A stretch of 64,000 nt of DNA, taken from positions 194,475 through 258,474 of the forward strand of contig CAWHSA010000004.1 in assembly GCA_963831855.1 (NCBI GenBank). Direction: 5' to 3'. This document shows, in pieces, positions 22,767 through 60,500 of this stretch. The notes under the pieces are model-generated. The model made no database searches and was not told the origin of the DNA. It saw only the letters and a program-made list of their open reading frames with translations. The DNA is from an uncultured Bacteroidales bacterium. GTDB lineage: Bacteria > Bacteroidota > Bacteroidia > Bacteroidales > VadinHA17. A program made the position numbers and the translations under genes. The stretch's first letter is position 1. The number at the start of each line of letters is the position of its first letter.

Positions 22767-22772
22767 AACTTT

Positions 22773-23348
22773 ATGAAGAATGACATTATTATTTCAGGAG
22801 TGGGAGGACAGGGTATCCTTACCATTGCGGCGGCAATAGGACTGGCTGCTATAGAATATAACTTATATTTTAAGCAGTCAGAAGTACATGGGATGAGCCA
22901 GAGGGGCGGAGATGTCCAGTCCCATTTCCGTTTTTCCGACACGCCTGTTTCATCTGACCTGATTCCAATTGGTAAAGCTGACCTGATAATTTCCGTTGAG
23001 CCAATGGAATCACTTCGCTATCTGCCGTGGCTGTCAGATTCAGGGTGGTTGGTAACAAGTTTAAATCCTTTTATAAATATACCAGATTATCCGCCTGTGG
23101 ATGAGATACTTACCGAGATAAAACAAATCAAAAACCATGTACTGGTCGATGCTGATGCTTTAGCCAGGCAAGCCGGTTCTGTACGTTCAGGTAACATGGT
23201 CGTTCTCGGAGCAGCATCACCATTCATTGACATGCCTTTCCCGGGCATCAGAAAAGCAGTAATAAAGCTTTTTGAGAAAAAAGGTCCGGAAATGGTGGAA
23301 TTAAACCTTAAAGCCCTCGAGGCAGGCAGAAATCATTCGGGGAGATAG
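22773..23348 (+). CDS. iorB: Indolepyruvate:ferredoxin oxidoreductase beta subunit
   Basis: 191 aa with the ISGVGGQGILT motif of the 2-oxoacid:ferredoxin oxidoreductase gamma-like domain. Paired with iorA. Confidence 0.8.
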   Translation: MKNDIIISGVGGQGILTIAAAIGLAAIEYNLYFKQSEVHGMSQRGGDVQSHFRFSDTPVSSDLIPIGKADLIISVEPMESLRYLPWLSDSGWLVTSLNPFINIPDYPPVDEILTEIKQIKNHVLVDADALARQAGSVRSGNMVVLGAASPFIDMPFPGIRKAVIKLFEKKGPEMVELNLKALEAGRNHSGR

Positions 23349-35059: not shown

Positions 35060-36544
35060 ATGAAAAGCAATCGTCGTGATTTTCTCAGGACCACAACATT
35101 TGCCGGGGCAGGTGCTTTGGCAGGTAGTATGATCTCCGGCTGCGCTCAGAAGGAAGCGGTATCAAATCTTGCAGGGATTCTTGAGGCTGTAAGAAAAACT
35201 CATTCTCCGCGATTTAACATGTCAGGATATGCTGCCCCGGCCCTCCCTGTTGTGAGAGTAGGCATCATAGGTCTTGGCGACAGGGGCGGTGAGGCTGTGA
35301 AACGGCTTACAAATATTGAAGGCGTCGAGATCAAGGCCCTTTGTGATAAACGGGAAGTTGCAGTTAAAGAATCACAAAAATATCTGCTGAGCATCGGACA
35401 TCCTGATGCACTGGAATTTTTCGGAGGCGAAGATGAATGGAAGAAGCTTATAGAACTACCTGATCTAGACCTGATTTATACATGCACCCCGTGGATTCTT
35501 CATACTCCCATTTGTGTTTATGCTATGGATCATGGAAAACATGCTGCGTCAGAAGTTCCCATTGCCAGGACCATTGATGAAGCATGGCAGCTGGTTGAGA
35601 CATCGGAAAGGACAAAGAAACATTGTATGATGCTCGAAAATTGCTGCTACGATTTCTTTGAGCTTCTTACTCTTAATATGGCCAGGCAGGGGATGTTTGG
35701 TGATATCATCCATGGTGAAGGTGCATATATTCATAACCTTCTTGGAATGAATTTTAAAAAACCAATTGACAATATCCAGGTCGACGGTGCATATACTGAT
35801 ATGTGGAGGCTGAAAGAAAATGCAACCAGGAACGGCAACCTTTACCCGACTCATGGACTTGGCCCTGTCTGCCAGGCTCTTAACATCAACCGGGGCGACA
35901 GAATGGAATATCTTTCTTCTGTATCAACAAAAGATTTTACCATGGCAGTTAAAGAAAAAGAGCTGGATGCATCAGATCCCTTTTATGATCTTTGGAAAAA
36001 TTCAGGGTTCAGAGGTAACTTCAATACCACGATTATAAGGTCGGCACTTGGGAAATCCATTATGATTCAGCACGATGTTTCCTCTTCACACCCATATTCA
36101 AGAATACACCTGGTCAAAGGGACCAGGGGAATGGCTGTTAAATACCCGAAACAGCTGATTGCACTTGGCGAAGTCTGGCTCAAAGAGGAGGATATGGCAA
36201 ACCTCTGGTCAGAGCATACACCCGAGATAGTAAAAAGGGTAGGAGAGATGGCTAAAAAAGTTGGCGGACACGGTGGGATGGACTTTATTATGGACTGGCG
36301 CCTTATTGATTGTCTGAGAAACGGTCTGCCTCTCGACCAGGATGTTTATGATGGTGCGGCATGGAGCTCAGTGGCTCCGTTAAGTGAATGGTCGGTGGCA
36401 AACAATTCTCAATCAATAGAAGTGCCCGATTTCACCGGGGGTTCATGGAAGATAAATAAGCCTCACGGAATAAATCTGGAGACAGGAGGAACAACTGCGT
36501 TTGTGGAAGTCAAAAAAGCTGAACTGCAGCCGGAGGAAAAATGA
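35060..36544 (+). CDS. Gfo/Idh/MocA-family NAD-dependent enzyme with Tat signal (GH109-like)
   Basis: 494 aa with the twin-arginine signal SNRRDFLRTTTFAGAGALAG and a lipobox-like ISGC. Also has the Rossmann motif VGIIGLGDRGG. This architecture is typical of GH109 alpha-N-acetylgalactosaminidase-like proteins. Confidence 0.7.
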   Translation: MKSNRRDFLRTTTFAGAGALAGSMISGCAQKEAVSNLAGILEAVRKTHSPRFNMSGYAAPALPVVRVGIIGLGDRGGEAVKRLTNIEGVEIKALCDKREVAVKESQKYLLSIGHPDALEFFGGEDEWKKLIELPDLDLIYTCTPWILHTPICVYAMDHGKHAASEVPIARTIDEAWQLVETSERTKKHCMMLENCCYDFFELLTLNMARQGMFGDIIHGEGAYIHNLLGMNFKKPIDNIQVDGAYTDMWRLKENATRNGNLYPTHGLGPVCQALNINRGDRMEYLSSVSTKDFTMAVKEKELDASDPFYDLWKNSGFRGNFNTTIIRSALGKSIMIQHDVSSSHPYSRIHLVKGTRGMAVKYPKQLIALGEVWLKEEDMANLWSEHTPEIVKRVGEMAKKVGGHGGMDFIMDWRLIDCLRNGLPLDQDVYDGAAWSSVAPLSEWSVANNSQSIEVPDFTGGSWKINKPHGINLETGGTTAFVEVKKAELQPEEK

Positions 36545-36671
36545 TCTCTTGTTGCTTGATGCTTGTTGATTGTCAATTAAATACGCAACTAATAAACAGC
36601 AACGAGGAACCGGGAAACAGGAACTTTATTGTAAAAAAGCAGTAAAAGTCTTCATTGGATAATTTATTTTT

Positions 36672-36679
36672 TACTTTTG
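36672..36679 (+). promoter_or_regulatory. Candidate Bacteroidota -7 promoter box (TAnnTTTG) for the Hyf/Ehr-like operon
   Basis: The sequence TACTTTTG lies about 35 nt upstream of the ATG at 36714. Confidence 0.3.
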
Positions 36680-36713
36680 CGGTCAAAATTTTTTGATCAG
36701 CGAAAATAAAAAA

Positions 36714-38708
36714 ATGTCGGGCGGTTTATTGTTTATCATAATTATCTCACTATCTCTTCCGGTTTTCTTCGTTCCAGGATCTCTGAAATACTACTACTCT
36801 CTCTTAATACTTGCCGGTGGAATTGGTTTGACTTCTATATGGTCATTTAATGTCCTTTCCGGTAGTATCGGTATTGCCGATTCAAAATTACTGATACCGT
36901 TAATTCATAATAACTTTATTCTGGCGATCGACAGGTTATCAGCATTTTTCCTGATAGTAATTAACATAACCGTTTTTGCCGGTTTCCTCTATGCCAGGGG
37001 ATACCTTCAGCCTTTCATTAAAACTAAAACACCGCTTCATTTCTCAATCCATTACTTCTCTTATCTGTGGCTTTATTTTTCGATGATTCTGGTCGTGATG
37101 ATCCGTAACGGACTCCCGTTTCTTATTGTCTGGGAAATTATGGCTCTCTCTTCATTCCTGCTGGTGATCTTTGATGCGGAGGAAAGGACTATTATGAAAA
37201 CAGGTATAGCCTATCTGATTCAGATGCATGCCGGTATGTTCTTTATTCTTGCAGCCTTCCTGATAGTGGATAAAGCAACAGGGAAAATGAGTTTTGATAC
37301 TCTGAATCTGTATTTTTCGAATCATTCAAATATTCTGATATTCATTCTCTTTTTTATAGGATTCGGTCTTAAGGCAGGATTCATACCCTTGCATACATGG
37401 CTTCCTGAAGCGCATCCGGCAGCTCCTTCACATGTTTCAGGAGTAATGTCAGGAGTAATGATAAAAATGGGCATATATGGAATCCTTAGGGTTCTGATAC
37501 AGGTTCAGAGCGATATGCTGCTGATCGGTGTTACCATACTGATAATTTCCCTGTTTTCAGGAGTTCTCGGGGTCATGATGGCTATTGTTCAACACGATCT
37601 GAAACGTTTACTGGCTTACCATAGCATTGAGAATATAGGTATTATAGGAATCGGAACAGGTCTTGGAATGGTGGGTCTTTCTGCAGAAAATAATGCATTG
37701 ACCCTACTTGGATTCAGCGGAAGCCTGCTTCATGTATTCAATCATTCACTTTTCAAATCACTCCTTTTTTTCAGTGCCGGATCAGTTTACAAAGCTACTC
37801 ATACGAGAAATATTGAACAACTCGGCGGGCTTATGAAAAATATGCCCTGGACATCAGGGTTGTTCCTTATCGGTTCCCTTGCAATATGCGGCCTTCCCCC
37901 ATTTAATGGCTTTATTTCGGAGTACCTGTTATACCTGGGGATGTTTAAAAGTCTTTCCGCTGCCAGCCTCTACCAGTCGATCCTGCTGTTATCAATGATC
38001 GTCGGACTTTCTCTTATCGGAGGACTTGCGCTTTTTTGTTTTACCAAAGCATTTGGGATTACTTTTCTGGGGTCACCACGATCAAAAAACGCTGCCGATG
38101 CAGTGGAAGTGACAAAAGATATGATATTACCCCAATTCATACTTGTTGCATTCATTGCAGCTGTAGGATTGGCTTCAGCTTTGTTTATCAGGCCTGTTTT
38201 TGGTATTGTGGTCCAGGCTTTTGGATTACCTGAATTATTAAATGGCTCAGGACCTTTCATAAATAACCTCACAAATATCAGTCTTATCAGTGGCATTTTT
38301 ATTGTTATGATTGTTATAATCCTGATATACAGATATATACATCTGAAATCCAGAAAGGTTGAAATCAGGTCCACCTGGGGCTGCGGGTATCCGGATACCA
38401 CATTCAGGCAGCAATATACAGCTACCTCTTATGCTTATAATTATAACCATCTGGCAAAACCTGTACTTCAGACCGGGAAGATCATGAATGACATCCGCGA
38501 GGATGAGATATTTCCCGAAAAAAGATCTTTCAGGTCACATAGCCCTGACATATTTAAAAAGCTTCTTGTTGATAAACCGGTAGATATTATTTCTGATCTG
38601 TTAAAGAAACTGGCAATAATGCAGACAGGAAAGATCCAGCATTATATATTATATGCATTTGTATTTATGCTTATTGTGTTATTGTTAACTTATTTAAAAG
38701 TTATCTGA
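36714..38708 (+). CDS. Antiporter-like membrane subunit, NuoL/HyfB/MrpA-like (EhrA-type)
   Basis: About 664 aa and polytopic. Has the motifs VWEIMALSSF, GLKAGFIPLHTWLPEAH, LAYHSIENIG and HSLFKSLLFF of the proton-conducting membrane transporter family. The longest ORF starts at a TTG at 36693; the ATG at 36714 is preferred. Confidence 0.8.
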   Translation: MSGGLLFIIIISLSLPVFFVPGSLKYYYSLLILAGGIGLTSIWSFNVLSGSIGIADSKLLIPLIHNNFILAIDRLSAFFLIVINITVFAGFLYARGYLQPFIKTKTPLHFSIHYFSYLWLYFSMILVVMIRNGLPFLIVWEIMALSSFLLVIFDAEERTIMKTGIAYLIQMHAGMFFILAAFLIVDKATGKMSFDTLNLYFSNHSNILIFILFFIGFGLKAGFIPLHTWLPEAHPAAPSHVSGVMSGVMIKMGIYGILRVLIQVQSDMLLIGVTILIISLFSGVLGVMMAIVQHDLKRLLAYHSIENIGIIGIGTGLGMVGLSAENNALTLLGFSGSLLHVFNHSLFKSLLFFSAGSVYKATHTRNIEQLGGLMKNMPWTSGLFLIGSLAICGLPPFNGFISEYLLYLGMFKSLSAASLYQSILLLSMIVGLSLIGGLALFCFTKAFGITFLGSPRSKNAADAVEVTKDMILPQFILVAFIAAVGLASALFIRPVFGIVVQAFGLPELLNGSGPFINNLTNISLISGIFIVMIVIILIYRYIHLKSRKVEIRSTWGCGYPDTTFRQQYTATSYAYNYNHLAKPVLQTGKIMNDIREDEIFPEKRSFRSHSPDIFKKLLVDKPVDIISDLLKKLAIMQTGKIQHYILYAFVFMLIVLLLTYLKVI

Positions 38709-38710
38709 TT

Positions 38711-39625
38711 TTGACAGGATTTGCTTTAATATTAGTTGCAGCGGTTTTCTTTCCCGGAGTAATATTGCGGGCAAAAAGCATTACCTCAGGACGAAGAGGA
38801 CCGGGTATATTGCAGCCTTTAAAAGATTTGCGGGTGCTGATGGGAAAAGGAAGTGTCTTCAGCAGCACTACAAGTATCATATTTCAGATTGCACCGGCAG
38901 TCTCTCTGGCCTCTGTTCTCTGTGCATCCCTTGTAGTTCCATTTGCAAATCAAAATGCATTTATTTCATTTGAAGGTGATTTTATCTTTTTCTCATACCT
39001 CCTTGCATCCGGAAAGTTCTTTTCAATCATTGCCGCACTTGATACCGGCAGCAGCTTCGGGGGAATGGGGGCAAACCGCGAAGCTTTCTTCTCCATGCTT
39101 ATTGAACCTGCATTTTTCATATTACTTGCTACTTTTGCCATGTTTACAGGCTATACCTCTTTCACTGATATTTTTAGCCACTTCTTTATTACAGGTAATC
39201 ATAATGTCTTAATATATAGCATTATAGGATTTTACCTGTTTATACAGATAGCTATGGTTGAGAACAGCCGTGTACCTGTGGATGATCCGAAGACTCACCT
39301 CGAACTTACTATGATTCATGAGGTGATGATTCTCGATAACAGCGGATTCGATAAAGCGTTGATCCACATAAGTTCATACCTGAAATTCGCGATTTATGGT
39401 TCTTTGATGTACAATCTTATAGTTCCTGCCGGATGGAACATAATTTTACAGATCGGGCTTTTTATTATGGTACAGCTTATGTTTGCTATCGTAATTGGGT
39501 TTACAGAATCTTTCCGGGCCCGGAATAAAATGAATAAAAATCCCAAATTCATTCTTACTATCTCAGCTGTTGCCTGGATTGCTTTTGTGGTGATTTTAAT
39601 ATTAACCGACAGATTTATCGGATAA
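38711..39625 (+). CDS. NuoH/HycD/HyfC-like membrane subunit (EhrB-type)
   Basis: 304 aa with about 8 TM. The loop RVPVDDPKTHLELTMIHEVMILDNSG aligns with the R-x-PFD-x2-E-x-E-x-EL...EYSG loop of the NuoH/HycD family. TTG start lies 2 nt after the upstream stop. Confidence 0.7.
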   Translation: MTGFALILVAAVFFPGVILRAKSITSGRRGPGILQPLKDLRVLMGKGSVFSSTTSIIFQIAPAVSLASVLCASLVVPFANQNAFISFEGDFIFFSYLLASGKFFSIIAALDTGSSFGGMGANREAFFSMLIEPAFFILLATFAMFTGYTSFTDIFSHFFITGNHNVLIYSIIGFYLFIQIAMVENSRVPVDDPKTHLELTMIHEVMILDNSGFDKALIHISSYLKFAIYGSLMYNLIVPAGWNIILQIGLFIMVQLMFAIVIGFTESFRARNKMNKNPKFILTISAVAWIAFVVILILTDRFIG

Positions 39626-39631
39626 ATAGAA

Positions 39632-40246
39632 ATGGTTAATTACCTTATAGTACTGTTCGCAATAACACTTATTTATTTTGCTTCCGCCGAAAGGCTGACA
39701 ACTTATATCAGGCTGATCGGTCTCCAGGGACTGTTGCTATGCGGAATTGCCCTTTTTGAGCTTAAGGAGATAAATGGTGCCAATCTTATCTTTATTGCAG
39801 CAGAAACGTTGATCTTCAAGACATTATTGATGCCGTACCTGTTGTTAAAGATCGTCAGGAACTCTGTCATTACCAAAGTCCATCGACTGGCTATGCCGGG
39901 ATTTTACACGCTTATCCTGTCAATATTTGCCCTTCTTATTAGTGTGATTCTCGCAAATTCCCTTATAAATCCCTTTATCAACACTATTTACATGTCAATT
40001 GCTCTGTTTGCTCTTTTTACCGGACTTGTGCTGATTGTTACCCACAGGCTTATAATCTCACACCTTATCGGTTTCCTGATAATTGAAAATGCTGTATTTA
40101 TGTTTTCTCTTGCTGTAGGAAATAAAATGCCAATGCTGATCAATGCCGGTATTCTGCTTGATATTTTCGTCGGAGTACTTATCCTTGGATTTTTCGGGTT
40201 GCGACTTAAATCGCATACCAACGAGCTGACAATGTTAAAAGATTAA
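39632..40246 (+). CDS. Small polytopic membrane subunit, HyfE/NuoK-like (EhrC-type)
   Basis: 204 aa with about 6 TM. Size and position match HyfE in hyf-type operons. The motif-level assignment is weak. Confidence 0.55.
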   Translation: MVNYLIVLFAITLIYFASAERLTTYIRLIGLQGLLLCGIALFELKEINGANLIFIAAETLIFKTLLMPYLLLKIVRNSVITKVHRLAMPGFYTLILSIFALLISVILANSLINPFINTIYMSIALFALFTGLVLIVTHRLIISHLIGFLIIENAVFMFSLAVGNKMPMLINAGILLDIFVGVLILGFFGLRLKSHTNELTMLKD

Positions 40247-40249
40247 GGT

Positions 40250-41686
40250 ATGGGACTACTCTTATTTTTTATTATTTCAGCGATAATGGGTATTTCAGTA
40301 GGAATACTCAAAAACAAAACTATCATTAAGATCATTACTCTCGGATTTGCAATTCTGCACATAGGTTTTACCTTGTACAGCTGGACTAATCTGGGAAGGA
40401 CCGAGCTGACTTATTTCTCTTATAATAGTCCGGGGGTATTATTGCTTTCAATCCTGTCGGTTCTTGTAATACCTACAATTTACCATGGATTTATTTATGC
40501 TTCCGGGAACGATGCCAAAAGATTCAGTATATATCATGGGGCATTAATTGCACTCATCACTTTCATGTCGGGCGCTTATCTGGCAAACGGAATGACTGTA
40601 TTATGGATATTTGTAGAAGCTACTACGCTTGCAGTAGCTGCCCTGATCTATCACGACCGGACTGAAATTGCCCTTGAGGCAACCTGGAAGTACGTATTTA
40701 TCTGTTCCACAGGTATTGCCCTGGCTTACCTGGGAATTCTGTTCTTAGGATTTATCTATGGCCGTGAAGATGCTGCAAACCTTTCTTTTGAAACTTTATC
40801 CGGTATAATCAACAAGGCGAATCCTATGTATCTGAAAATAGCGTTTCTGTTTGTCCTGGTCGGCTTCAGCACCAAGATGGGGCTTTTCCCGATGCATACT
40901 GTTACAATTGATGCTCACTCAGTTGCTCCTCCTCCGATAAGTGCGCTCATATCAACCACTTTGATGAATGTCGGGTTCCTGGCAATTTTCAGGGTATTTT
41001 CATTATTCTCATCATCATCAATCCTGAGCTTCATGAATAATGTCCTGATTCTTTCCGGGACACTTTCCATTTTAATTGCTGCGGGATATATGCTTAAAGC
41101 AAAGCACCTCAAACGGATGCTTGCTTATTCAAGCCTGGAAAATATGGGTCTTGTAGCAATTGCAATGGGTATTGGCGGTGTCGGGTATTATGCAGCATTT
41201 CTGCTACTGGTTCTCCATTCCCTGGCGAAATCTGGATTGTTCTATCAAATGGGCCAGCTTTCAAAGATACTTCACACATTCAAACTTGATGAGTGCGGGC
41301 GCTATATGAAACTTTACCCTGCAGGAGCAATGGTGCTTGTTACCGGAATGATCTGTATACTTGCTGTTCCGCCGTCAGGTTTATTTATTGCCGAATTCAT
41401 GATTTTTAAAGGATTGGTTTTCAACGGACAATGGCTGGTCATGATAATAGCAATCATATTGCTGTGCTTTGTTATATATGCAATGAGCACCAGAGTTATG
41501 CATATAGTATTTTCTGACCCGAGGAACCATTTTAAGCAGATTGAGCCGGACAGAGTAAGTCCTGTTGAGACATTCACCCAGTTTGCTTTTTTCGGAACAG
41601 TTATAGTTTTATGCTTTTATCAGCCTCCATTCCTCGTTGATCTCATTAATCAAAGCGTTGCATTATTGCCAAAATTAGCATTGTAA
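40250..41686 (+). CDS. Antiporter-like membrane subunit, NuoN/NuoM/HyfF-like (EhrD-type)
   Basis: 478 aa and polytopic. Has the motifs FVEATTLAV, FSTKMGLFPMHT, LAYSSLENMG and LHSLAKSGLFY of the proton-conducting membrane transporter family. Confidence 0.8.
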   Translation: MGLLLFFIISAIMGISVGILKNKTIIKIITLGFAILHIGFTLYSWTNLGRTELTYFSYNSPGVLLLSILSVLVIPTIYHGFIYASGNDAKRFSIYHGALIALITFMSGAYLANGMTVLWIFVEATTLAVAALIYHDRTEIALEATWKYVFICSTGIALAYLGILFLGFIYGREDAANLSFETLSGIINKANPMYLKIAFLFVLVGFSTKMGLFPMHTVTIDAHSVAPPPISALISTTLMNVGFLAIFRVFSLFSSSSILSFMNNVLILSGTLSILIAAGYMLKAKHLKRMLAYSSLENMGLVAIAMGIGGVGYYAAFLLLVLHSLAKSGLFYQMGQLSKILHTFKLDECGRYMKLYPAGAMVLVTGMICILAVPPSGLFIAEFMIFKGLVFNGQWLVMIIAIILLCFVIYAMSTRVMHIVFSDPRNHFKQIEPDRVSPVETFTQFAFFGTVIVLCFYQPPFLVDLINQSVALLPKLAL

Positions 41687-43203
41687 TGGGTCAGCACTTT
41701 AGAACAATAATAAACAATTCGTCACCGGTTGACATAAGGGATATACCCCTGTTAACCTATGATGAGTTTTATGTTCAGGTAACTGAATTTCTAAAAGCTG
41801 AAACCAGGCACTGTATTGCATATTTTTGTTATGAAGTCGCTGATAACCTGAGCTTTTATTGCTCAATTGCTGATGACAAGGATCTGACCATATCAGTATT
41901 TGCTTATTTATTGAATAAGAAGAATGCTACTTTAAAATCATTAACTCCGGCATCTCCCCAGCTTCATTTATTTGAGAGGGTGATCCATGAAAAGTACGGA
42001 GTGGAATTTAAGGGGCACCCATGGCTGAAGTTTGTCCGGTTCCCCCATGACCGTTTTGAAAAGGCAAAATCGATGCATGATTATCCTTTTTATGAAATTG
42101 AGAGCGAAGAGCTTCATGAAGTTGGAGTAGGCCCGGTTCATGCCGGTGTAATTGAACCAGGTCATTTCAGATTCATTTGCAACGGTGAAAAAGTATTGCA
42201 TCTTGAAATCCAGCTGGGGTATCAGCATCGTGGTATTGAAAAGTTGTTTCTCGAAAAAGGTACTCCACTGCAACAGTGTATAACCTCTGAATCCATTGCC
42301 GGAGATACTTCTGTCGGACATTCACTTGCCCATGCACAGCTTATTGAATCTTTAGCTGGATTGGAAACAGGTATAAAATTGCAGATTGAGCGCTGTATTG
42401 GCCTTGAACTTGAAAGGATGGCTGTTCATATTGGCGATACTGCTGCCTTATGCGGGGATGTAGCTTACCAGTTGGGACAGGTTGTTTGTGAAGCGCTCCG
42501 GACTACCATCATCAATACAACTCAACTCTGGTGCGGTAACCGCTTCGGAAAGGGACTTATACGTCCGGGCGGGACCAATTATCCTCTTAATGATAATGTT
42601 ACAGATGAGATAATGAGAGTTCTGACAGATACAGGAAAACGTTATTCAGAAATCGCAGACCGCATATTTACTCTGCCGAGTGTTCTTGCCCGTTTTGAGG
42701 ACATCGGAATAGTTACCAGGCAACAGGCAGCCGATACAGGGGCAGTGGGAATGGCAGCCCGGACATGTGGTATCCCCAGGGATATCCGGAAAACTCATCC
42801 TTTTCAATACTATAAAAGTTATCCAGTGCAACCCGTAATGCATTTTACAGGAGATGTACTGGCACGTGGGATGCAAAGGGTGCTTGAGGTAAAGGAATCT
42901 GCTAAGATCATCTCAGATCTTATTGGCATTTGGAAACAAAACTCAGGTCACAACCTGATGCCCGATTATAATTATAAGCTGAAACCGGGAAGTTACGCAG
43001 TTTCTCTGGTAGAAGGATGGAGGGGAGAAATTTGCCATGCTGCCGTAACCGGCGACAATGGTGAAATTATACATTATTATGTTAAGGATCCATCATTTCA
43101 CAACTGGATGTCACTCGCTCTGGCAGTCCGTAATCAGGAGATATCAGATTTTCCTGTTTGCAATAAAAGCTTTAACCTTTCCTATTGCGGACACGATTTG
43201 TAA
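41686..43203 (+). CDS. NuoC-NuoD / HycE-HyfG-like large subunit lacking the NiFe-binding cysteines (EhrL-type)
   Basis: 505 aa. The NuoC-like part has FERVIHEKYGVEFKGHP. The NuoD/large-subunit part has GVGPVHAGVIEPGHFRF and LGYQHRGIEK. The L1 site reads ESIAGDTSVGH where ER-x-CG-x-C-x3-H is expected. The C-terminus reads SFNLSYCGHDL where D-P-C-x-x-C-x-x-R/H is expected. The start overlaps the upstream stop (TAATG). Confidence 0.85.
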   Translation: MGQHFRTIINNSSPVDIRDIPLLTYDEFYVQVTEFLKAETRHCIAYFCYEVADNLSFYCSIADDKDLTISVFAYLLNKKNATLKSLTPASPQLHLFERVIHEKYGVEFKGHPWLKFVRFPHDRFEKAKSMHDYPFYEIESEELHEVGVGPVHAGVIEPGHFRFICNGEKVLHLEIQLGYQHRGIEKLFLEKGTPLQQCITSESIAGDTSVGHSLAHAQLIESLAGLETGIKLQIERCIGLELERMAVHIGDTAALCGDVAYQLGQVVCEALRTTIINTTQLWCGNRFGKGLIRPGGTNYPLNDNVTDEIMRVLTDTGKRYSEIADRIFTLPSVLARFEDIGIVTRQQAADTGAVGMAARTCGIPRDIRKTHPFQYYKSYPVQPVMHFTGDVLARGMQRVLEVKESAKIISDLIGIWKQNSGHNLMPDYNYKLKPGSYAVSLVEGWRGEICHAAVTGDNGEIIHYYVKDPSFHNWMSLALAVRNQEISDFPVCNKSFNLSYCGHDL

Positions 43204-43222
43204 GTCTTAATCATTTTTAAGG

Positions 43223-43978
43223 ATGATGTTGAAAGAAATAAAAATACTGAAGAGTCACGGCAGCCAGTACGTGAAGAACCTGCGGACACAAGCAGTTTCA
43301 CCGGCATTCAGAGGGCGTCCTGTAATTTCAGATGATCTGGGCAGTCCTGAAATACATTTTGTGACAAACCTTTGCCCGGTACAGGCGATAGGGAGTGAAA
43401 CCGGTTCCATTGATCTCGGCAAGTGCGTTTTTTGCAATGAATGTGCCCTGGCTCTTCCGGGGAAAATCAGATTTACAAGTGATTACAGGACAGCGGTTAA
43501 CAGGAGGGAGGATCTGGTAATTAATCCGGGAATTGATGTTCAGATCAGGTTAAATGATAATGTTATCAGGAAAGAGGCAAGGAAGTTATTCAAAAACGCA
43601 CTGAAGCTAAGACAGGTTTCTGCCGGTGGTGATAATTCGTGCGAGATGGAACTCGCAGCGACCGGGAACGTAAACTTTGATTTTGGACGCTACGGAATTG
43701 AATTTACCGCTTCGCCACGTCATGCAGACGGGATTGTAATCACCGGTCCGATAAGTGAAAACATGGCTGAAGCATTGGTAATGACATATGACGCAATACC
43801 TTCACCAAAGATCATCATACTTGCCGGAACTGATGCTATAAGCGGAGGTATCTTTGCAGGCACTCCTGCCCTGAACAGGCAGTTTATCGATAACCATCAT
43901 ATTGATCTATATATTCCCGGAAATCCGGTTCACCCGCTGACATTTATAAATGGAGTGCTGGATCTGCTTGGGATATAA
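43223..43978 (+). CDS. NuoB/HycG/HyfI-like small subunit with N-terminal single-cluster ferredoxin-like segment; proximal-cluster ligands mostly lost (EhrS-type)
   Basis: 251 aa. The NuoB-like core is FTASPRHADGIVITG ... PSPKIIILAGTDAISGG ... DLYIPGNPVHP. Only one Cys (GGDNSCEME) sits at the four canonical ligand positions. The N-terminus has LCPVQAI plus CVFCNEC. Confidence 0.8.
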   Translation: MMLKEIKILKSHGSQYVKNLRTQAVSPAFRGRPVISDDLGSPEIHFVTNLCPVQAIGSETGSIDLGKCVFCNECALALPGKIRFTSDYRTAVNRREDLVINPGIDVQIRLNDNVIRKEARKLFKNALKLRQVSAGGDNSCEMELAATGNVNFDFGRYGIEFTASPRHADGIVITGPISENMAEALVMTYDAIPSPKIIILAGTDAISGGIFAGTPALNRQFIDNHHIDLYIPGNPVHPLTFINGVLDLLGI

Positions 43979-53623: not shown

Positions 53624-56600
53624 CTATTTAATTTTTACCAGGTGCACGGTTTTTGAATGTCCGGGGAATTCAACCTTGAGATAATATACTCCTGGTGCAA
53701 GCCCGGTACCGGATATTTCTGCCGTACTGGTTCCTATAGTTATATCCTTGTCGAAATCAACTAAAACAGTCCCTCCAAAATTTGTCAGAGTAAAATGAGC
53801 TATCCCATTGAACTCCGAGTTCAGAACAATATTGATTTTATCCCTGAATGGATTTGGGGTGACCAGTAAAGGTTTGTTCAGCTCATTGTTCCTGATATTA
53901 ACCCTTACTGTATCATTTAGAAGATAATCATCATTATTATTGTATCCGTAGGCAACTATATTATAGTTTCCATAATATGACAGATTCGCATTGGTATTGA
54001 ATGTAACGGTCACGGAATCCCCGGATGGTATCAGTGTATAATCAAAATGCTGTGTTACAGGAGTCGAGTTATTAATAGAATAAGCCATATTAAATCCGCG
54101 GATAGTGTCTCTTCCGATATTTGCAATCCTCAGAGAAACAGGCTCTTTCCCGAGATTATCTTTATTGACAGGCGTGACAAATCTTGCAGTAATGATATCT
54201 TTCTTTATATATGTAACTGTTGCAGGACCCGTGAAATCAATCATATCTATCAAAGCACAATCCAGGCCGGATGAAACCGACTGGTCCTTTTTGTACAGCC
54301 ATTCCATTTTGTTGTATCCTTTTTTAACAGGTATAGCCTCCTTTTGCCAGGCGATCTCACCCGACTTTTTCATGATCTCAACATCATTGAGCCTGAAGAG
54401 CAGAAAATCGTAACTTGCCTCGGAGGAGACAGAGTAATAAAATTTAAGAGAGTCTGCCTGAGGATACCATGCTTTTATACATAGTGCCGATGTCTCGTTG
54501 TGTGAAATTGCCCCTGACCGTGCTGAAACAATGCCATCCCGGGAATTTAATTGCGTGATGGTCCAGGGGATCGGGCTCACATTAATCCAGGGGAATATAT
54601 TGAAAGTGGCGGATTCAAATGATTCCCTGACACGTCCCACCCGGAAACTAAAGTTTCTGTTGACAAAATGCGGATCACAGTTCAGAAAAGAATTCAGGGA
54701 AATAGTAGTCCCGGAGGATGCTGATGGCAATAATTTAACCATAACAGGTATCTGTGTAATTTTCTCCTCTTCAAGATTCCCGGAACCCTTGCCGGGTTCG
54801 AGGACTGTGAGTTCCGGATCCGGACTTGATACATTAAATATACCTGAAGTATTGCTGCTTCCGCTGTTTCTTACATTAAATAACAGATTAAATGTCTCAC
54901 CCGGGTCAGCGATAAAGTCACCGTTTCCTGTTTGTTTGTCGTCAAATTTGTAATTTAATATATCCAGTTCAGGAGCATGGACATTCATGTCAATCTTATA
55001 ATCTTTTTCACAAGCATCATCTCTTAGGATAAGGTCGAAGGTGACAATGCCTTTATCCGGAACCTCCCTTGATAACCTTACATTGAGTTTGTTGTTCAGG
55101 ATTATCTCAGATCCCGGACCAAGTGTTCCGATATCAGCAGAATCATTCAGAATTGTAACCCATGCAGAAGTTGTTGATATTAATGCACGCAGGTTATTAG
55201 CTCCGGTCAGTCCCAGGTTACTGATTGTCAGCTTAAGGGAAAAAGTCTCACCGAAATCAGCAAGACCATTATTGTTTCCCGACTGATCGTTTATCCCTGA
55301 TTTTGTAAGGTTTATAAATTCACTCTTAACATTGGAAAAATATACTTTTTTTATGACAGGCTTCTTATTCTGGCCTGTTATGACGAAAAGACAGGAATCA
55401 TCCGATAAGCCAGGCATATCCAGAGTTACAGAACCAGATGGGCTTAGGAATGATGCGTCCCAGAGTGTATCGAAATGTGAAACAGCAGCATATGAAAAAG
55501 GATCGCCGTTGAATGAAAATGATTTGATATTGTTTGGCAGTGTATCGGGGAGGGAAGTGCTGAACACACCGGGAGTACCTATAATCGGAATAATGCTTGG
55601 ATCCCCTACAAGGTTATAGTTTTCCCAGTAATATTTCTTTTTTGATGTGGTACTTGCGCTTACTGACAGGTTACCAGCAAAATTGATCTGACCCATGGTT
55701 ATATACCAGTCCGATGGTGATTCGTTATGAGTATGAAACATACGGTCCAGAGCCCCGAGCCCTGTGGTTTCATATTTCGGACTGGAAGAAGGGATTCCGG
55801 TTCCGACTGCCCAGTAAAAATCCTCATCCCAGTATGAGTCATCTGCACACCCTATAAAACCAATAGCGCCCTTATTCCCGGAAACTACCAAGCTGTTTCC
55901 AAGGGATGGCTGGCTGAAGGCAGATGTCGAGCAGGCATTGCTTATTATAAAAGGATACATGTTCTTGTTCCTGAATCGCAGTGAATCGGAGGTGTAAATA
56001 TTTGATGAATCCTTAGAAGTGCTGTGTATGAGCCATCCTGTTGGTTGTCCGTGGCCACTGTAATTCAGGAACGAAATACCTTTATTCACCCGGTCGATAA
56101 TGGACGACTTTGTACTCTTAGTAACATCAGCTGAATAAAAGTGAAATTCAGTTATTTTGTTGGCACTGTTCAGATAATTGTCAAGTGAGTATTTTATCTG
56201 GCCATTCATATAATCTGCATGCGCCGCGTCTATGCCGGCAGTGGCCAGCGCATTTGAATAAAATTTATTAGTATCTGCAAACTCAAATTTCTCATACTGA
56301 ATGATTTTGTCAACCACATATCTCAACTCGGTCGTGTCCTTAACCGGTAATCTTCCAATGAACATTTCAGGGATGTAATCGCCATTTCCGTCAAACTCTC
56401 CATAATACATATCGGTTACACTTCCGGTTCCGTAATATGGTATCCTGCTTACATTCCCAATAATAAGAAGAAATTCCGGTGGAGGATTATCTGTTGTTGA
56501 AGATTTATAAATTCGGTCCAGGGTATCTTTCAGGGCAGTATATGTGTTACCTGCGAGGCCGGCTCCTTTGTACAATACATCAATAAGGAAGCCCTTCTGG

Positions 56601-57412
56601 GTTTTCCACCTGATTAAGGGCTGGAGACCCTTTTTAAATGCGGTATCCGTCAGAATTACCATCCTGACCGGTTTATCTGTGTACCCGGTGATTACATTTC
56701 CTGGATTGTAGTTAAGAACTCCTTTTTCAAGCAGTTCACCTGTTAATGGAGATTCGGGGAAAAGTGCTTTTGATTGGATATCGACAGCCGGTGAAAAAGA
56801 TATCTCAATTTTCATCGAAATGATGACCTCAATGCTGTTTTTATGCGGGTTATATCTGACCGGGGAGATCATGACATTCGCAAGGTTTTTTCCCCTGGTA
56901 GTTCCTAATGGTTCAATTCTGACGGTATCCTGACCAATGAACTCACGCGAAGCGTAAATCTCTTTATCAAAGGCAAATCGCGGCTTTTTATCCTTTAATA
57001 TTTTAGCTTCGCTTTCCTGAGCAGGATAAAGTACCCCTTTGATTTTCTTAGTCGATGGTCTGAACCTTGTAGATCTGACTTCAGAAATCTTTATTATGGG
57101 TTTATAGCCTGTCGGCACCTCGATCAGACGGCTGAGAACAGGAAACTCGGGTTTGCCGGTATCAGCAGAATGAATGTGACCCGGAATTTCAATTCTGAAG
57201 AATGTTCCCTGGTCATTTATAAGATCTTCAAGATTAAGCTCTGAAAATGAATAATTTATGATTAGTGAGTGATCATTGGCAATGATCTCTTTAGCCTGTT
57301 GTTCAATATGAGGAATATACTTATATAGCCTTCCCGTCTGGCCCGATGAAGTTAATGCAAATGCAGCAAAAAAAGCCAGTAACCTGTATTGTTTAAAATT
57401 CCCCAAAATCAT
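53624..57412 (-). CDS. C25 (gingipain-family) cysteine peptidase-like protein with T9SS C-terminal sorting domain; possibly PorU-type
   Basis: 1262 aa with a signal peptide. Has the His motif YSGHGQPTGW and the Cys motif FIISNACSTSAF of clan CD/C25. The C-terminal ~80 aa (VTPNPFRDKINIV...GVYYLKVEF...VKIK) looks like a T9SS CTD. Confidence 0.8.
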   Translation of the reverse strand: MILGNFKQYRLLAFFAAFALTSSGQTGRLYKYIPHIEQQAKEIIANDHSLIINYSFSELNLEDLINDQGTFFRIEIPGHIHSADTGKPEFPVLSRLIEVPTGYKPIIKISEVRSTRFRPSTKKIKGVLYPAQESEAKILKDKKPRFAFDKEIYASREFIGQDTVRIEPLGTTRGKNLANVMISPVRYNPHKNSIEVIISMKIEISFSPAVDIQSKALFPESPLTGELLEKGVLNYNPGNVITGYTDKPVRMVILTDTAFKKGLQPLIRWKTQKGFLIDVLYKGAGLAGNTYTALKDTLDRIYKSSTTDNPPPEFLLIIGNVSRIPYYGTGSVTDMYYGEFDGNGDYIPEMFIGRLPVKDTTELRYVVDKIIQYEKFEFADTNKFYSNALATAGIDAAHADYMNGQIKYSLDNYLNSANKITEFHFYSADVTKSTKSSIIDRVNKGISFLNYSGHGQPTGWLIHSTSKDSSNIYTSDSLRFRNKNMYPFIISNACSTSAFSQPSLGNSLVVSGNKGAIGFIGCADDSYWDEDFYWAVGTGIPSSSPKYETTGLGALDRMFHTHNESPSDWYITMGQINFAGNLSVSASTTSKKKYYWENYNLVGDPSIIPIIGTPGVFSTSLPDTLPNNIKSFSFNGDPFSYAAVSHFDTLWDASFLSPSGSVTLDMPGLSDDSCLFVITGQNKKPVIKKVYFSNVKSEFINLTKSGINDQSGNNNGLADFGETFSLKLTISNLGLTGANNLRALISTTSAWVTILNDSADIGTLGPGSEIILNNKLNVRLSREVPDKGIVTFDLILRDDACEKDYKIDMNVHAPELDILNYKFDDKQTGNGDFIADPGETFNLLFNVRNSGSSNTSGIFNVSSPDPELTVLEPGKGSGNLEEEKITQIPVMVKLLPSASSGTTISLNSFLNCDPHFVNRNFSFRVGRVRESFESATFNIFPWINVSPIPWTITQLNSRDGIVSARSGAISHNETSALCIKAWYPQADSLKFYYSVSSEASYDFLLFRLNDVEIMKKSGEIAWQKEAIPVKKGYNKMEWLYKKDQSVSSGLDCALIDMIDFTGPATVTYIKKDIITARFVTPVNKDNLGKEPVSLRIANIGRDTIRGFNMAYSINNSTPVTQHFDYTLIPSGDSVTVTFNTNANLSYYGNYNIVAYGYNNNDDYLLNDTVRVNIRNNELNKPLLVTPNPFRDKINIVLNSEFNGIAHFTLTNFGGTVLVDFDKDITIGTSTAEISGTGLAPGVYYLKVEFPGHSKTVHLVKIK

Positions 57413-57564: not shown

Positions 57565-60500
57565 ATGAAAAGGTATGCTGTTGTACTTCTCCTGTCAGCT
57601 TGTCTGTTTGAATTATCAGGCCAGATAAACAAGTACGGAGTTCCTTTTATTAAGAATTATCCTACACAGATAACGCAGGGTTCTGAGCAGAACTGGTGTA
57701 TCACTAAAGATATGTTTGGGGTTGTATATTTCGGTAACCAGGATCGCGGAGTTATTCGTTATGATGGTACCAAATGGTCGTCTATAAAAATAAGAAACAA
57801 TCCGAGAATATATTCACTGGCTGCGGGACCGAACGGTGAGGTCTATGTCGGAGCGGCTTATGAATTCGGGTATCTGCAGCCTGACGAAAAGGGTAAAACC
57901 GAATATATCTCTCTAACAGACCGGGTCGACTCGGTTGCAGATATTAAAGTGATCTATTCAATTGAAATATCTGACGGGAGGGTTCTCTTCCTCGGACCGA
58001 GGCACCTTTATATTTATGAGAGTGAAAAAAACTCATTTTCTGATATAAAATTAGCTGATTTTAATATTAAAGATGCATACAAGCTTTTCAGGATCAATGA
58101 CCGCATAATTATCACCGACAATATAAATGGTATTTTTGAGCTCCAGGGAAATATTATAAGGCAGATGCCAGGTGGAGATTTCTTTAAGAAGAAACTCTGT
58201 ACGGTCCTTCTTCCATATGATGAAAACAAGGTTCTTGTATGCACTTACAAGGATGGGGTATTTCTTTATGATTATACTTCCGGTACCATCAGGAATGACT
58301 TTGTCGACAAGAAGATTAATGATAAATTTAAAGATGTAGTAATCTATGCTGCAGCAAAAATATCTGAAGACCTTTTTGCTATCGGTACTACAACCGAAGA
58401 GGGAATGCTGGTGTTTGACAAAACCGGAAATCTTTTGACTCAGATCAGGAAGGAAAATTCTGATCTTGAAGATAATACCATATACGCAGCTTACTGTGAT
58501 TATAAGAATAATTCTGAATTATGGATCTCAACCTATGGAATAATCAGCAAGATTTATTTTAATATTCCGCTTACAAAATTCGCTGATAAACAGGGAATTG
58601 ATATAGGAGTAAATGAGATCTGCAGATTCCAGGATGATATTTACCTTTCTTCGGATGCCGGGATTCTGAAATCATTTGTTAATGAACAGAACAATGTTGC
58701 CTTCAGAAAAGTCCCGGGGACCAATATGCAGTTTTTCCCGCTCGAAGTAGTCAGGACCAGCCACAGAGAGATAATGCTCGCAGGTTCACGCCTGGGGCTG
58801 TTCCAGATATCTCCCGGCGATGTGATAAGAAGTGTTGAATCAAACTGCAGGAACCTGCCGACAAAAAATCCGGTTTATAATGTCAGATCCATAATGCAAT
58901 CTTCTTCCGACAGGGATATAGTCTATTTGGGGTTAGAATCCGGCGGTATTGTGATTTTAAAGGATCAGGGGGACTATTGGGAATTTATTAACAGGATACG
59001 GGGTTTTGAAGGCCTTATCAATGGGATCGTTGAAGAAAAGGATGGGATCTGGTTTGCTACAGATGATCCGGGCGCCTTATATAAGGCCAAATTCAGTGAT
59101 AATGATACTTCAATTGTAAGGTATGGTCCGGATAAAGGGGTCCCTGATGTCAGGCTCTTTACAATTTATAAAATCAGGGATGATGATTATGTCACCACGG
59201 CATCGGGGATTTTCAGATATGACAGGACAAATGACCAGTTTGTACCTGACAATAGCATTACAGGAGGGTATTCTAAAGGTAAATCCTCCCAAAATCTTTA
59301 TCCTGACGAGGATGGTGATCTCTGGTTCAGCGGATTTGATACCCGGAACTATGAAATGCTCTTCAGGAATACACGCACTGGTATAGTTGGTTACAGGGGC
59401 ATTTTTAATCTTCTGCCGAATGTCCCGTCCCTGGATTTTTTGAATATTGACGGGAAAATGTTTGTTACCAAATCCAAGATTGTTGCTGTCATTGATAAAT
59501 CAAAATTAGTTCCGGATTCCGCGATAATCAGCCCCAGGTTTGCTTACATTACTGTAGGCTCCGACACAGTTATGAATGGTATGTTCCACAAGGATATTGA
59601 CAGTACCCGCAGGATACCGCTGATAATGAACCCATCTTCCACTATTCCGGAGTATGGTTTTGACATGAATAAAATTGCCTTCGAATGGACAACTCCATAT
59701 TTTATCGAGGAGCTTCAGACAGAATACAGCAGCATGCTGGAAGGATATGATGAAAGCTGGTCAAGATGGCAGGGAATATCATTTGGCTATACTGCCGAAG
59801 CGCTCTATTCAAGGAAAGAATTTACAAATCTTCCTTATGGGCATTATATTTTTAAAGTAAGAAGCCGCACGCTTACAGGTCTTTCCGGAAATGAACTCAG
59901 GTATGAATTTATAATACTTAAACCGTGGTATGCAACGGTGTGGGCATATATTGGTTATGTTCTTGCAGCATTTATGGCCGTTGTAGGGATAATCAGCGCC
60001 TATACGCGGAGGCTTAAAAATGAAAATATAAGGCTTGAAGGGATTGTTGCAGAGCGTACTGCTGTAGTTGTTAAACAGAAGGAAGAACTTGAATCCAGCA
60101 TTCATTACGCCAGCCGGATACAGATGGCACTGCTTCCTTCAGAAGCAATCCTTTCGGAGAATATTAAAAATTATTTTGTCCTGTTCAAACCGAGAGACAT
60201 AGTCAGCGGGGATTTCTACTGGATGACTAAAAAAAATGAAAGGCTTTATATTGTAGCTGCCGACTGTACAGGACATGGAGTGCCTGGAGCATTTATGAGC
60301 CTTCTCGGAATGTCATTCCTTGATGAAATAATTGAAAAGGAGAAAGCTCCCCGTGCTGATTTCATTCTTAAACAGCTCCGACATCATGTAACTGACTCCC
60401 TGAAGCAGGTGGGAGGCGACGATGAAGCAAAGGACGGCATGGACATAGCTCTCCTCGTTATAGATTTTAATGCACGCCGTGTGGAATTCTCCGGTGCATA

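Follow-up and report, generated by a model that had tools for sequence, protein, structure and literature searches.

A predicted Ehr operon retaining one four-cysteine site in an uncultured Bacteroidales bacterium

Six genes for an Ehr-type complex

We analyzed a 64-kb stretch of contig CAWHSA010000004.1 from an uncultured Bacteroidales bacterium (the window; coordinates and strands were read from its open reading frames, or ORFs). Six tightly packed ORFs, all on the plus strand at 36693-43978, very probably form a self-contained operon for an energy-converting hydrogenase-related (Ehr) complex, EhrA-B-C-D-L-S, derived from a six-subunit Hyf/Ech-like group-4 [NiFe] hydrogenase. This identification is based on family scans, alignments, a fold match to HycE, the conserved gene order, placement in a Cys-free clade, and the published Ehr architecture. 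The operon is no new kind of system; Ehr is already known from genomics, through the Geobacter work and the 2013 survey. Its intergenic spacers are, in order, 2, 6, 3, -1, and 19 nucleotides (nt), the -1 being a TAATG overlap at 41684-41688 (EhrD stop/EhrL start). The original prediction, made from the letters and an ORF list, had described six packed same-strand genes with exactly these coordinates, gaps, and overlap. The genes and the two domains of the last one are as follows.

36693-38708, plus strand: EhrA, HyfB/NuoL-type antiporter-like subunit, 671 amino acids (aa) as ORF
38711-39625, plus strand: EhrB, NuoH/HycD/HyfC-type subunit, membrane anchor for the peripheral arm, 304 aa
39632-40246, plus strand: EhrC, HyfE-type small membrane subunit, 204 aa
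40250-41686, plus strand: EhrD, HyfF/NuoN-type antiporter-like subunit, 478 aa
41686-43203, plus strand: EhrL, large subunit, NuoC-like part (aa 1-135) fused to a NuoD/HycE-like part (aa 136-505), 505 aa
43223-43978, plus strand: EhrS, whole gene, fusion of a HycF/NuoI-like part (aa 1-120) and a NuoB-like part, 251 aa
43223-43582, plus strand: EhrS N-terminal domain, HycF/NuoI-type, ferredoxin-like, with the four-Cys site C51, C68, C71, C74
43583-43978, plus strand: EhrS C-terminal domain, NuoB/HycG-type, with D137, C140, D204, and N234 at the proximal-cluster ligand positions

The true start of EhrA is probably the ATG at 36714, which would yield 664 aa, the same length as in relatives. Pfam and NCBIfam scans supported the subunit families assigned earlier far beyond chance. 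The composition also matches published descriptions of Ehr complexes (PMC6349859 Suppl. Note 4; PMC7894505), as had been proposed. All NCBIfam matches of the operon proteins were far below the curated equivalog cut-offs, indicating that these proteins all differ from ordinary Hyf, Hyc, and Nuo subunits.

The membrane arm

EhrA matched Pfam family PF00361 (Proton_antipo_M; 7e-51) and, over residues 37-665, the NCBIfam model of hydrogenase-4 subunit B (HyfB; 9e-161). All 49 relatives share its residues E148, K227, K258, H347, H351, and K355, and 47 of the 49 have E410; this is the antiporter residue pattern of Escherichia coli HyfB. EhrD matched PF00361 (7e-41) and the NCBIfam model of HyfF (2e-68) and has the HyfF pattern, with E123, K209, H323, K327, and E382 invariant in all 73 relatives and N240 in 72. 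EhrB, a member of PF00146 (NADHdh; 1.5e-27), retains the HycD-type charged residues (EPxFF, E.SR.P.DDP, and ESFxAR), and its loop between transmembrane helices (TM) 5 and 6 is highly conserved. No match to EhrC was obtained in the Pfam scan; residues 1-199 matched the NCBIfam model PRK11492 (hydrogenase 4 membrane subunit, HyfE; 2e-10), and the membrane Glu of its "EN" motif is common to HyfE.

Three loops link the peripheral chamber to the membrane in MBH and MBS (PMC7684303). All three are conserved here: the beta1-beta2 loop, the NuoH-like TM5-6 loop, and the HyfB-like C-terminal loop "TWGCxY...QYT", which aligns with AWACGY of HyfB and AWVCGY of HycC. With two antiporter-like subunits, a NuoH-like and a HyfE-like subunit, and these loops, the membrane arm is predicted to be fully equipped for ion translocation.

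The former Ni-Fe pocket of EhrL

EhrL matched PF00346 (Complex1_49kDa; 4.6e-34) and PF00329 (Complex1_30kDa; 2e-7). Its best solved relative is E. coli HycE, both by sequence (3e-36) and by fold (TM-score 0.72, E 2e-18); MbhL (1e-27) and MbsL (1.7e-12) also matched by sequence. In the alignment, RVCGICGFAH of HycE corresponds to SIAGDTSVGH of EhrL, and DPCYSCTDR to NLSYCGHDL. The positions of the four Ni-Fe cysteines are thus occupied by A, T, S, and G, and all four cysteines are absent from the window protein, as they are from 79/79 relatives. The replacements recur among these relatives (A in 72/79, T or S in 77/79, S in 77/77, and G in 77/77).

Complex I features are missing as well. The "DYLH" motif of Nqo4 aligns with "AGDT" of EhrL, placing Gly206 at the position of the quinone-site Tyr; we take Tyr87 and His38 (Thermus thermophilus Nqo4 numbering) to be the quinone-site residues of NuoD. 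The beta1-beta2 loop of EhrL reads VGPxHAGxIEPGHFRF, and its EPGHFRF part is of the hydrogenase (HycE) type, not of the Nqo4 type. Judged by these columns, the complex cannot make or use H2, and, lacking the quinone-site His and Tyr of complex I, it cannot be a quinone reductase either. Hydrogenase activity was ruled out by this ligand analysis.

When EhrL was compared with its Cys-bearing sister hydrogenases (described below), 71 positions were identically conserved, including E157, R446, S470, N473, and the EPGHFRF loop. Versus these sisters, D258 and D468 were acquired in the former Ni-Fe pocket by Ehr generally. D207, which lies between the two former L1 cysteines, is invariant. Separately, the C-terminal tail of EhrL carries C492 and C501 (FPxC-NKSFNLSY-C-GxDL); they are found in 68/77 and 66/77 relatives and are not invariant, and their alignment columns are not those of the Ni-Fe ligands. 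Public annotations of the homologs are inconsistent, ranging from "Ni,Fe-hydrogenase III large/small subunit" to "NADH-quinone oxidoreductase subunit C."

Iron-sulfur sites of EhrS

The NuoB-like part of EhrS belongs to PF01058 (Oxidored_q6; 2e-18) and matched MbhJ (8e-20), HycG (1e-17), and MbsJ (8e-10). A residue alignment to MbhJ and HycG showed that the cysteines of the proximal (N2-type) cluster correspond to D137, C140, D204, and N234. Among 72 relatives, these columns contain D in 71, C in 59, D in 69, and N in 72. H237 (motif PGNPxHP) was considered as a newly gained ligand and ruled out, since an N2-bearing outgroup (loci L094 and L103) already has PGCPPHPLT.

The original prediction had listed a HycF/NuoI-type module among the missing subunits. 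This module is present, fused to the small subunit as aa 1-120 of EhrS. The single EhrS sequence matched this domain weakly (NCBIfam 2e-6; HycF 0.003), and a profile built from 30 family sequences matched HycF (1e-6), E. coli NuoI (2e-6), MbhN (5e-5), and MbsN (1e-4); nearly all matches of the N-terminal profile were NuoI/HycF-family subunits. The motif FRG(R/K)P is common to EhrS, HycF, HyfH, and NuoI. An AlphaFold2 model of EhrS had a mean pLDDT of 55; residues 30-110 reached 71-95, with NdhI as the best fold match. It was used only to confirm the NuoI-like fold, the NuoB-like half being unreliable.

Compared with HycF, HyfH, and NuoI, motif 1 of EhrS has lost CxxCxxC and kept its C-P, whereas motif 2 has kept CxxCxxC and carries Leu or Phe in place of the C-P cysteine. 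The remaining cysteines C51, C68, C71, and C74 are invariant in 72/72 relatives. Given the ferredoxin-fold topology, one cluster would thus have lost every one of its four ligands and the other would have all four. With mature TYKY numbering, the last cysteine of motif 2 is Cys126, a ligand of N6a (PMC9783039); the lost cluster would therefore be N6a (distal) and the retained one N6b (medial). EhrS is therefore predicted to have a single four-Cys site left, the medial (N6b-type) one, the ligands of the distal (N6a-type) and proximal (N2-type) clusters being lost.

Normally, the proximal cluster N2 receives its electrons from N6b. The distance between N2 and the medial cluster is about 14 Å (center to center) in complex I, and N2 lies about 12 Å from the quinone head group; physiological tunneling between redox centers spans about 14 Å or less. 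A single medial center would thus provide no donor-to-acceptor link at the chamber. Electrons should be barred from the old catalytic chamber along the route of all characterized relatives. That route relies on the proximal cluster, which in MBH, MBS, and complex I either hands electrons on as the final relay or is itself the place of catalysis (PMC7684303).

Spread, gene order, and conservation among relatives

EhrL homologs number thousands in uncultured Bacteroidales, the best being 72% identical. A scan of one genome per species confirmed at least 595 EhrL relatives, and the best 80 of these were used to study gene order and neighbors. All 80 come from metagenome-assembled genomes (MAGs) of Bacteroidota, except for one Ignavibacteriaceae bin and one "Spirochaetes" bin. 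A cultured carrier was sought by look-ups of ten nearer representatives and by a homolog search from a Paludibacter-labeled MAG; both gave only MAG-derived names. The suggestion that this operon would be a good experimental entry point is thus weakened: all carriers seen are uncultured MAGs, and Geobacter or Nitrospira would serve better.

The order of the six genes is kept in 66/80 loci, most of the others being cut contigs. At least 16 loci have a second HyfB-like gene, giving a 7-gene form. The duplicate (about 675 aa; PF00361 1e-53) lies between the first and second genes in L037, L038, L052, L054, L058, L066, L072, L073, L076, and L079, and upstream of the first gene in L039 and others. 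In L029 (5004-12299), the six ehr genes are split into short ORFs with 74-82% identity to the window, due either to long-read frameshift errors or to a decaying copy.

Clustering of four genes on each side of the 80 loci revealed no conserved neighbor; the largest cluster, a GH109-like gene found at 12 loci, is unrelated, and other clusters comprise peptidases, glycosyltransferases, and ribosomal proteins. No hyp maturase, endopeptidase, FdhF, CooS, or HycB/CooF-type polyferredoxin gene was found in the 10-kb flanks of these loci.

Conservation was ranked by mean pairwise identity over 44 complete loci. The cluster-less NuoB-like domain was the most conserved part of the complex (74.6%, with 55.7% of its columns at least 90% conserved). 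It was followed by the NuoH-like subunit EhrB (61.9%), the NuoD-like domain of EhrL (60.7%), the ferredoxin-like domain of EhrS (50.0%), and the antiporter-like subunits (48-52%). The NuoC-like domain of EhrL was the least conserved (42.2%). Since the NuoB-like domain ranks highest and the antiporter residues and coupling loops are intact, the lost metal sites are remodeled under strong selection rather than degenerate. The term "degenerate," used in the original prediction, is misleading, since the replacement residues are among the most conserved ones of the complex. Pseudogene formation or decay was ruled out by the invariant functional residues and by 50-75% identity across deep Bacteroidota divergences.

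Stepwise loss of cofactor sites

A deep search with EhrL (1.84 billion representatives, 50%-identity clusters, E ≤ 1e-3) returned 4,756 clusters. Among the best 150 matches, 113 were full length, and 109 of these lacked the Ni-Fe cysteines. The four Cys-bearing matches, at 33-37% identity, share the C-terminal context DFPLxNKSFxL-CYSC-xDR. In a neighbor-joining tree of 205 large subunits, without curated HydDB sequences among its tips, the window protein was nested in a Cys-free clade and thus not inside a ligand-bearing hydrogenase clade. The Cys-bearing relatives formed the adjoining group, HycE and HyfG of E. coli branched further out, and NuoCD served as outgroup. After removal of the ligand columns, 100/100 bootstraps placed the window protein in a Cys-free clade with 80 or more tips, and 89/100 in one with 100 or more; support for all Cys-less sequences being monophyletic was weak (at least 170 tips in 14/100 bootstraps). 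Ehr has been placed beside group 4f (PMC10284858).

With the Cys-bearing sisters as query, 80 metagenomic loci were found, including 45 Cys-less loci that could be scored. They can be arranged by the sites that they keep.

True hydrogenases with six-gene layout and NuoI-NuoB fusion: Ni-Fe cysteines present, proximal site present, both ferredoxin-type sites present; 3 loci
Ehr with three clusters: Ni-Fe cysteines absent, proximal site present, both ferredoxin-type sites present; 5 loci
Ehr with proximal and medial clusters: Ni-Fe cysteines absent, proximal site present, medial ferredoxin-type site only; about 21 loci
Ehr with NuoB-only small subunit: Ni-Fe cysteines absent, proximal site present, no ferredoxin-type sites; 17 loci
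Ehr, N2-less: Ni-Fe cysteines absent, proximal site absent (TEGS, SCDD, DTDN), no ferredoxin-type sites; 3 loci

All four proximal cysteines are kept in 42 of these 45 other Ehr loci. In L094 and L103, the nearest outgroups of the Bacteroidota clade, the large subunit has the "ATSG" pattern of that clade, but none of the three clusters has been lost, and their small-subunit context is almost identical to that of the window clade (LRQVSAGGCNACE, PGCPPHPLT). Each of these loci (L094, 1-12423; L103, 1-14728) has a tandem of two Ehr-type gene sets; in the L103 tandem, two membrane sets are followed by two large/small-subunit pairs, one "ATSG" and the other "SSSG."

The three other N2-less loci (L161, L152, and L148) belong to a different subclade, beside relatives (L155 and L162) that keep CCCC. 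L161 (4240-11533) has the same D-x-D-N replacement as the window clade. Thus, the proximal cluster was lost at least twice, with convergent replacements. In this subclade, the NuoB-only small-subunit gene lies upstream of EhrA. The Bacteroidota clade of the window is, by its ligand positions, a distinct N2-less Ehr variant with the medial cluster only.

The Cys-bearing sister operons are stand-alone six-gene units with no maturases or donor modules nearby, indicating that the six-gene unit is the ancestral module. By analogy to Ech and MBH, this ancestral module was probably ferredoxin dependent. Directly after one of these operons, in L159 (12510-13130), lies a GPR1/FUN34/YaaH gene (SatP-type acetate/succinate channel).

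Flanks and window content

Upstream of the operon are genes for YceG, MurB, a glycosyltransferase, and a GH109-like protein with the twin-arginine (Tat) motif NRRDFLR. Downstream, a convergent gamma-glutamyltranspeptidase gene (ggt) ends 12 nt past the sixth gene, and beyond it are genes for a DNA-alkylation repair protein and PitA/PhoU-like proteins. In agreement with the earlier description of a Tat-exported GH109-like enzyme and a convergent ggt, the flanks are, by their predicted products, functionally unrelated to the operon. One candidate regulatory element was noted.

36672-36679, plus strand: candidate Bacteroidota-type -7 promoter box TACTTTTG (TAnnTTTG), 34 nt 5' of the probable ATG

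TAnnTTTG is the Bacteroides promoter -7 consensus, and a chance match in this AT-rich spacer of 148 nt is quite possible. In a sigma-70 promoter and terminator scan, promoter-like sites were no better than in shuffled sequence; the sigma-70 model is uninformative for Bacteroidota. An Rfam scan of the whole window yielded no family at gathering score, and 36300-36900 gave chance-level matches only.

No fdhF, cooS, nuoEFG, hyp, hycI, rnf, or nqr gene was found in the 64-kb window; hyp, hycI, fdhF, hycB, and nuoEFG are absent within the 36 kb upstream and 20 kb downstream of the operon. These absences agree with the rest of the earlier list of missing subunits (FdhF/CooS, NuoEFG, HycI, and Hyp). 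Together with the ligand columns and the tree, they uphold the claim that the operon encodes no formate hydrogenlyase, CO-dependent hydrogenase, or complex I. Nor were missing subunits found in the window or in the flanks of related loci, as a split canonical nuo or hyf locus would have them.

The rest of the window encodes a hexuronate/pectin cluster, peptidases, and a 2-oxoacid:ferredoxin oxidoreductase. The latter is an IorA-like fused POR_N/TPP_enzyme_C protein of 537 aa (21153-22766, plus strand), whose gene is followed by a 191-aa ORF (pair at 21153-23348, plus strand), 14 kb upstream of the ehr operon. This ferredoxin-reducing enzyme shows that the organism runs low-potential ferredoxin metabolism. 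The hexuronate/pectin cluster (35-12723) comprises GH39, a UxaE-like tagaturonate epimerase, an MFS transporter, 6-phosphogluconate dehydrogenase, a LarA_N-like protein, two SDRs, UxaC, GH88, and KduI. A 496-aa protein consisting almost entirely of ankyrin repeats (15801-17291, minus strand; Ank_2 4e-39) is unusual for a free-living Bacteroidales bacterium. A 1262-aa C25 (gingipain-type) peptidase with propeptide (53624-57412, minus strand) adjoins a 1116-aa Reg_prop/SpoIIE-phosphatase regulator (57565-60915, plus strand).

What the complex may do

We favor a mechanism in which ion translocation would be coupled to an event other than electron transfer, located at the remodeled, carboxylate-rich NuoB/NuoD/NuoH-like chamber. 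The event could be the binding, protonation, or non-redox conversion of a cation or small molecule. The putative pocket would comprise D207, D258, D468, E157, and R446 of EhrL and D137, D204, and N234 of EhrS. The event in this pocket would be coupled, in either direction, to movement of H+ or Na+ through EhrA and EhrD, and the lone medial cluster would be a structural element or a redox sensor of the NuoI-like domain, not a relay. That the complex is an ion-translocating machine driven by, or driving, such an event we put forward tentatively, at a little under an even chance. The explanation as a whole, Ehr identity and non-redox mechanism combined, seems to us about as probable as its negation and is the best that we can offer. 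The stricter version, that electron transfer has been abandoned altogether and the chamber has become a conserved carboxylate-rich site coupling ion-motive force to a non-redox event, is doubtful.

That the complex still functions, and that its pocket matters, is supported by the invariant antiporter residues, the three conserved coupling loops, the top conservation rank of the NuoB-like domain, the NuoH- and NuoD-like parts ranking above the antiporter-like subunits, the Asp residues gained by Ehr in the old Ni-Fe pocket, and the D-x-D-N set that a second subclade acquired independently. The electron wire seems dispensable in the Ehr family, because other Ehr clades have three, two, or one cluster. 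We infer that the Fe-S wire was trimmed repeatedly in Ehr while selection preserved the chamber and the membrane arm.

Several points weigh against this mechanism. Ehr in the narrow sense is without any experiment, and the proposed ligand or reaction is hypothetical. The original prediction had stated that no Ehr complex has a demonstrated role; this holds for the narrow sense, although some authors count as Ehr-type the P. furiosus complex Mbx/MBS, which has been characterized (PMC7684303). Retention of the proximal cluster in 42/45 other Ehr loci suggests that Ehr is generally still redox active, perhaps including the window clade. The invariance of the medial four-Cys site (72/72) would also fit a working redox role. 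Homologs of NuoB and NuoD are the most conserved in ordinary complex I too, so that high conservation alone is no proof of new chemistry. Asp, Asn, and Ser commonly fill cavities in place of Cys, and the D-x-D-N set need not be a binding site. Single-chain models had low confidence exactly at the interface regions, and the search for partner genes covered the window and the locus flanks only.

The strongest competitor, which we consider fairly unlikely, is an ion pump still driven by redox chemistry. A low-potential donor such as reduced ferredoxin would pass electrons to an exposed medial cluster and on to an unrecognized cofactor at the D/C/D/N site or to a nearby substrate, powering ion translocation as in Ech, MBH, and MBS. 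Besides the invariant medial site, the high conservation of the coupling site speaks for it, and the organism has ferredoxin-reducing enzymes such as the IorA-like protein (21153-22766). Most other Ehr complexes keep the medial and proximal wire (about 21 loci) or all three clusters, so ancestral Ehr was probably redox active. A Ni-Fe-less relative, MBS, does redox chemistry at an Fe-S cluster (PMC7684303). However, the proximal ligands here are D, C (in only 59/72), D, and N, and the cluster through which electrons usually enter, the distal one, has been lost too. We know of no Fe-S cluster with D/C/D/N ligation. In the complex I structure, the medial cluster is roughly 25 Å from the chamber, well past the tunneling limit of about 14 Å, and linking a donor with an acceptor at the coupling site takes more than one redox center.

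Less probable again is a membrane adaptor that docks an unlinked soluble oxidoreductase, for instance a formate dehydrogenase with NuoE/F-like subunits, and works only in this larger complex. A formate dehydrogenase-Ehr complex was proposed for Margulisbacteria and Saganbacteria (PMC6349859), and Geobacter has higher levels of its Ehr subunits on formate (PMC7894505). A partner encoded elsewhere would have escaped a search confined to the window and to the flanks of related loci. Nevertheless, none of the 80 loci has a conserved neighbor (the largest cluster being the GH109-like gene at 12), even the Cys-bearing sister operons stand alone as six-gene units, and the window has no fdh or nuoEF genes. 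With the distal and proximal clusters gone, a docked dehydrogenase would also lack a wire to feed.

An Mrp-like secondary cation/proton antiporter, in which the peripheral arm is a leftover serving assembly or stability and the Fe-S cluster is purely structural, ranks slightly lower and seems improbable. It agrees with the complete, invariant Lys/Glu/His set of the antiporter-like subunits, with the missing electron wire, and with the repeated loss of clusters across Ehr clades. Such membrane modules work without redox input in Mrp. A leftover cap, however, would be expected to diverge more quickly than the functional parts, and here the NuoB-, NuoD-, and NuoH-like parts are more conserved than the antiporter-like subunits; the replacement residues are near invariant and convergent, and none of the three coupling loops has been lost.

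A genuine group-4 [NiFe] hydrogenase, a formate hydrogenlyase, or a fragment of a split nuo or hyf locus, as the public annotations and the solved relative HycE might suggest, is next to impossible in view of the Ni-Fe cysteines missing from 79/79 relatives, the absent proximal ligands, the NCBIfam scores far below cut-off, the lack of hyp, hycI, fdhF, hycB, and nuoEFG around this and related loci, Gly206 at the quinone-site Tyr, and the hydrogenase-type beta1-beta2 loop.

Significance

Ehr is widespread, from Geobacter and Nitrospira to the candidate phyla radiation (CPR) and ammonia-oxidizing archaea, and it has been termed a "missing link" connecting hydrogenases with complex I. The clade of the window is common in anaerobic Bacteroidales; its Ehr is unusually stripped down, yet the coupling interface is its most conserved part. 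The N2-less clade poses the question of Ehr function in its sharpest form. If the complex is active, the NuoB/NuoD/NuoH chamber and the ion-translocating arm would be driven, or would drive, without the canonical electron wire, which bears directly on coupling in machines of the complex I type. If electron transfer has been abandoned, this would be the first member of the superfamily whose peripheral arm works without a redox reaction. In practice, misannotation of ehr genes inflates predictions of H2 metabolism and respiration for Bacteroidales MAGs. Specialists in the bioenergetics of complex I and hydrogenases should find the clade of moderate to high relevance; for other readers its relevance is modest.

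Comparison with known systems

Ehr was reportedly defined in the survey of Marreiros et al. (2013), which is outside the coverage of our literature search. The search found no mention of Ehr in Bacteroidota, and an earlier report of an N2-less form could exist. The names of the complex and of its subunits come from Geobacter (GSU0739-45; EhrA-1, EhrC, EhrL, EhrS, etc.), where the role was never investigated (PMC7894505). In Margulisbacteria, NuoC-NuoD and NuoI-NuoB fusions occur with HyfB, HyfF, NuoH, and HyfE, and the complex was likened to Ehr of Firmicutes and hyperthermophiles (PMC6349859 Suppl. Note 4). Ehr without assigned function is described from comammox and other Nitrospirales, CPR, ammonia-oxidizing archaea, and others (PMC10284858, PMC12342949, PMC7304191, PMC10432482). 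According to the literature on Ehr of Nitrospirales, Nitrospira moscoviensis expresses Ehr without a rise on H2. The function of Ehr was still called unknown in 2025 (PMC12342949).

The operon shares with the Ehr loci of Geobacter (EhrA-1/A-2/B/C/D/L/S), Margulisbacteria, and Nitrospira the subunit set, both fusions, the lack of Ni-Fe cysteines, and the stand-alone operon; Geobacter Ehr was compared by its published composition. The EhrA-1/A-2 duplication of Geobacter corresponds to the 7-gene form among the Bacteroidota relatives. In contrast to the 42/45 other Ehr loci with four proximal cysteines, the window clade has D-C-D-N and the medial cluster only.

The Cys-bearing sisters (L084, L159, and L163), probably HydDB "group 4f," have the same gene order ending in a NuoI-NuoB fusion and the same C-terminal context of the large subunit (DFPLxNKSFxL..Y..D). 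They possess the four Ni-Fe cysteines, the proximal site, and both ferredoxin-type sites, whereas only one of these four metal sites is left in the window complex. E. coli Hyf and Hyc (PDB 7Z0S) provide the best-scoring characterized relative of each subunit (HyfB, HyfC/HycD, HyfE, HyfF, HycE/HyfG, and HycF plus HycG). Unlike them, the window operon has HycF and HycG fused, lacks the Ni-Fe site and the proximal cluster, and is without nearby genes for FdhF, HycB/HyfA, HyfD, a maturation protease, or Hyp proteins.

MBS of Pyrococcus furiosus (formerly Mbx; PDB 6U8Y), whose structure is solved, is built from 13 subunits, including an Mrp module, and holds three [4Fe-4S] clusters; polysulfide reduction takes place at its catalytic, three-Cys proximal cluster (PMC7684303). 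MBS is likewise hydrogenase derived, Ni-Fe-less, and ion translocating, with the three-loop coupling design, and shows that Ni-Fe-less relatives can do other chemistry. The window complex differs in having six subunits and one four-Cys site and in lacking the proximal cluster; its similarity to MbsL and MbsJ is only distant. Modules homologous to NuoB, C, D, H, and I are shared by the window complex and complex I, as are antiporter-like subunits that carry the conserved TM5 Glu, TM7 Lys, TM8 Lys/His, and TM12 Glu/Lys. The window complex, however, lacks the N2 cluster, the quinone-site Tyr and His, separate NuoA/J/K genes, and NuoEFG, and it has four membrane genes only. The same set of TM5 Glu, TM7 Lys, TM8 Lys/His, and TM12 Lys/Glu places its antiporter-like subunits close to those of Mrp, whereas, unlike Mrp, the complex has a large and highly conserved peripheral arm made of NuoH-, NuoC/D-, NuoI-, and NuoB-like parts.

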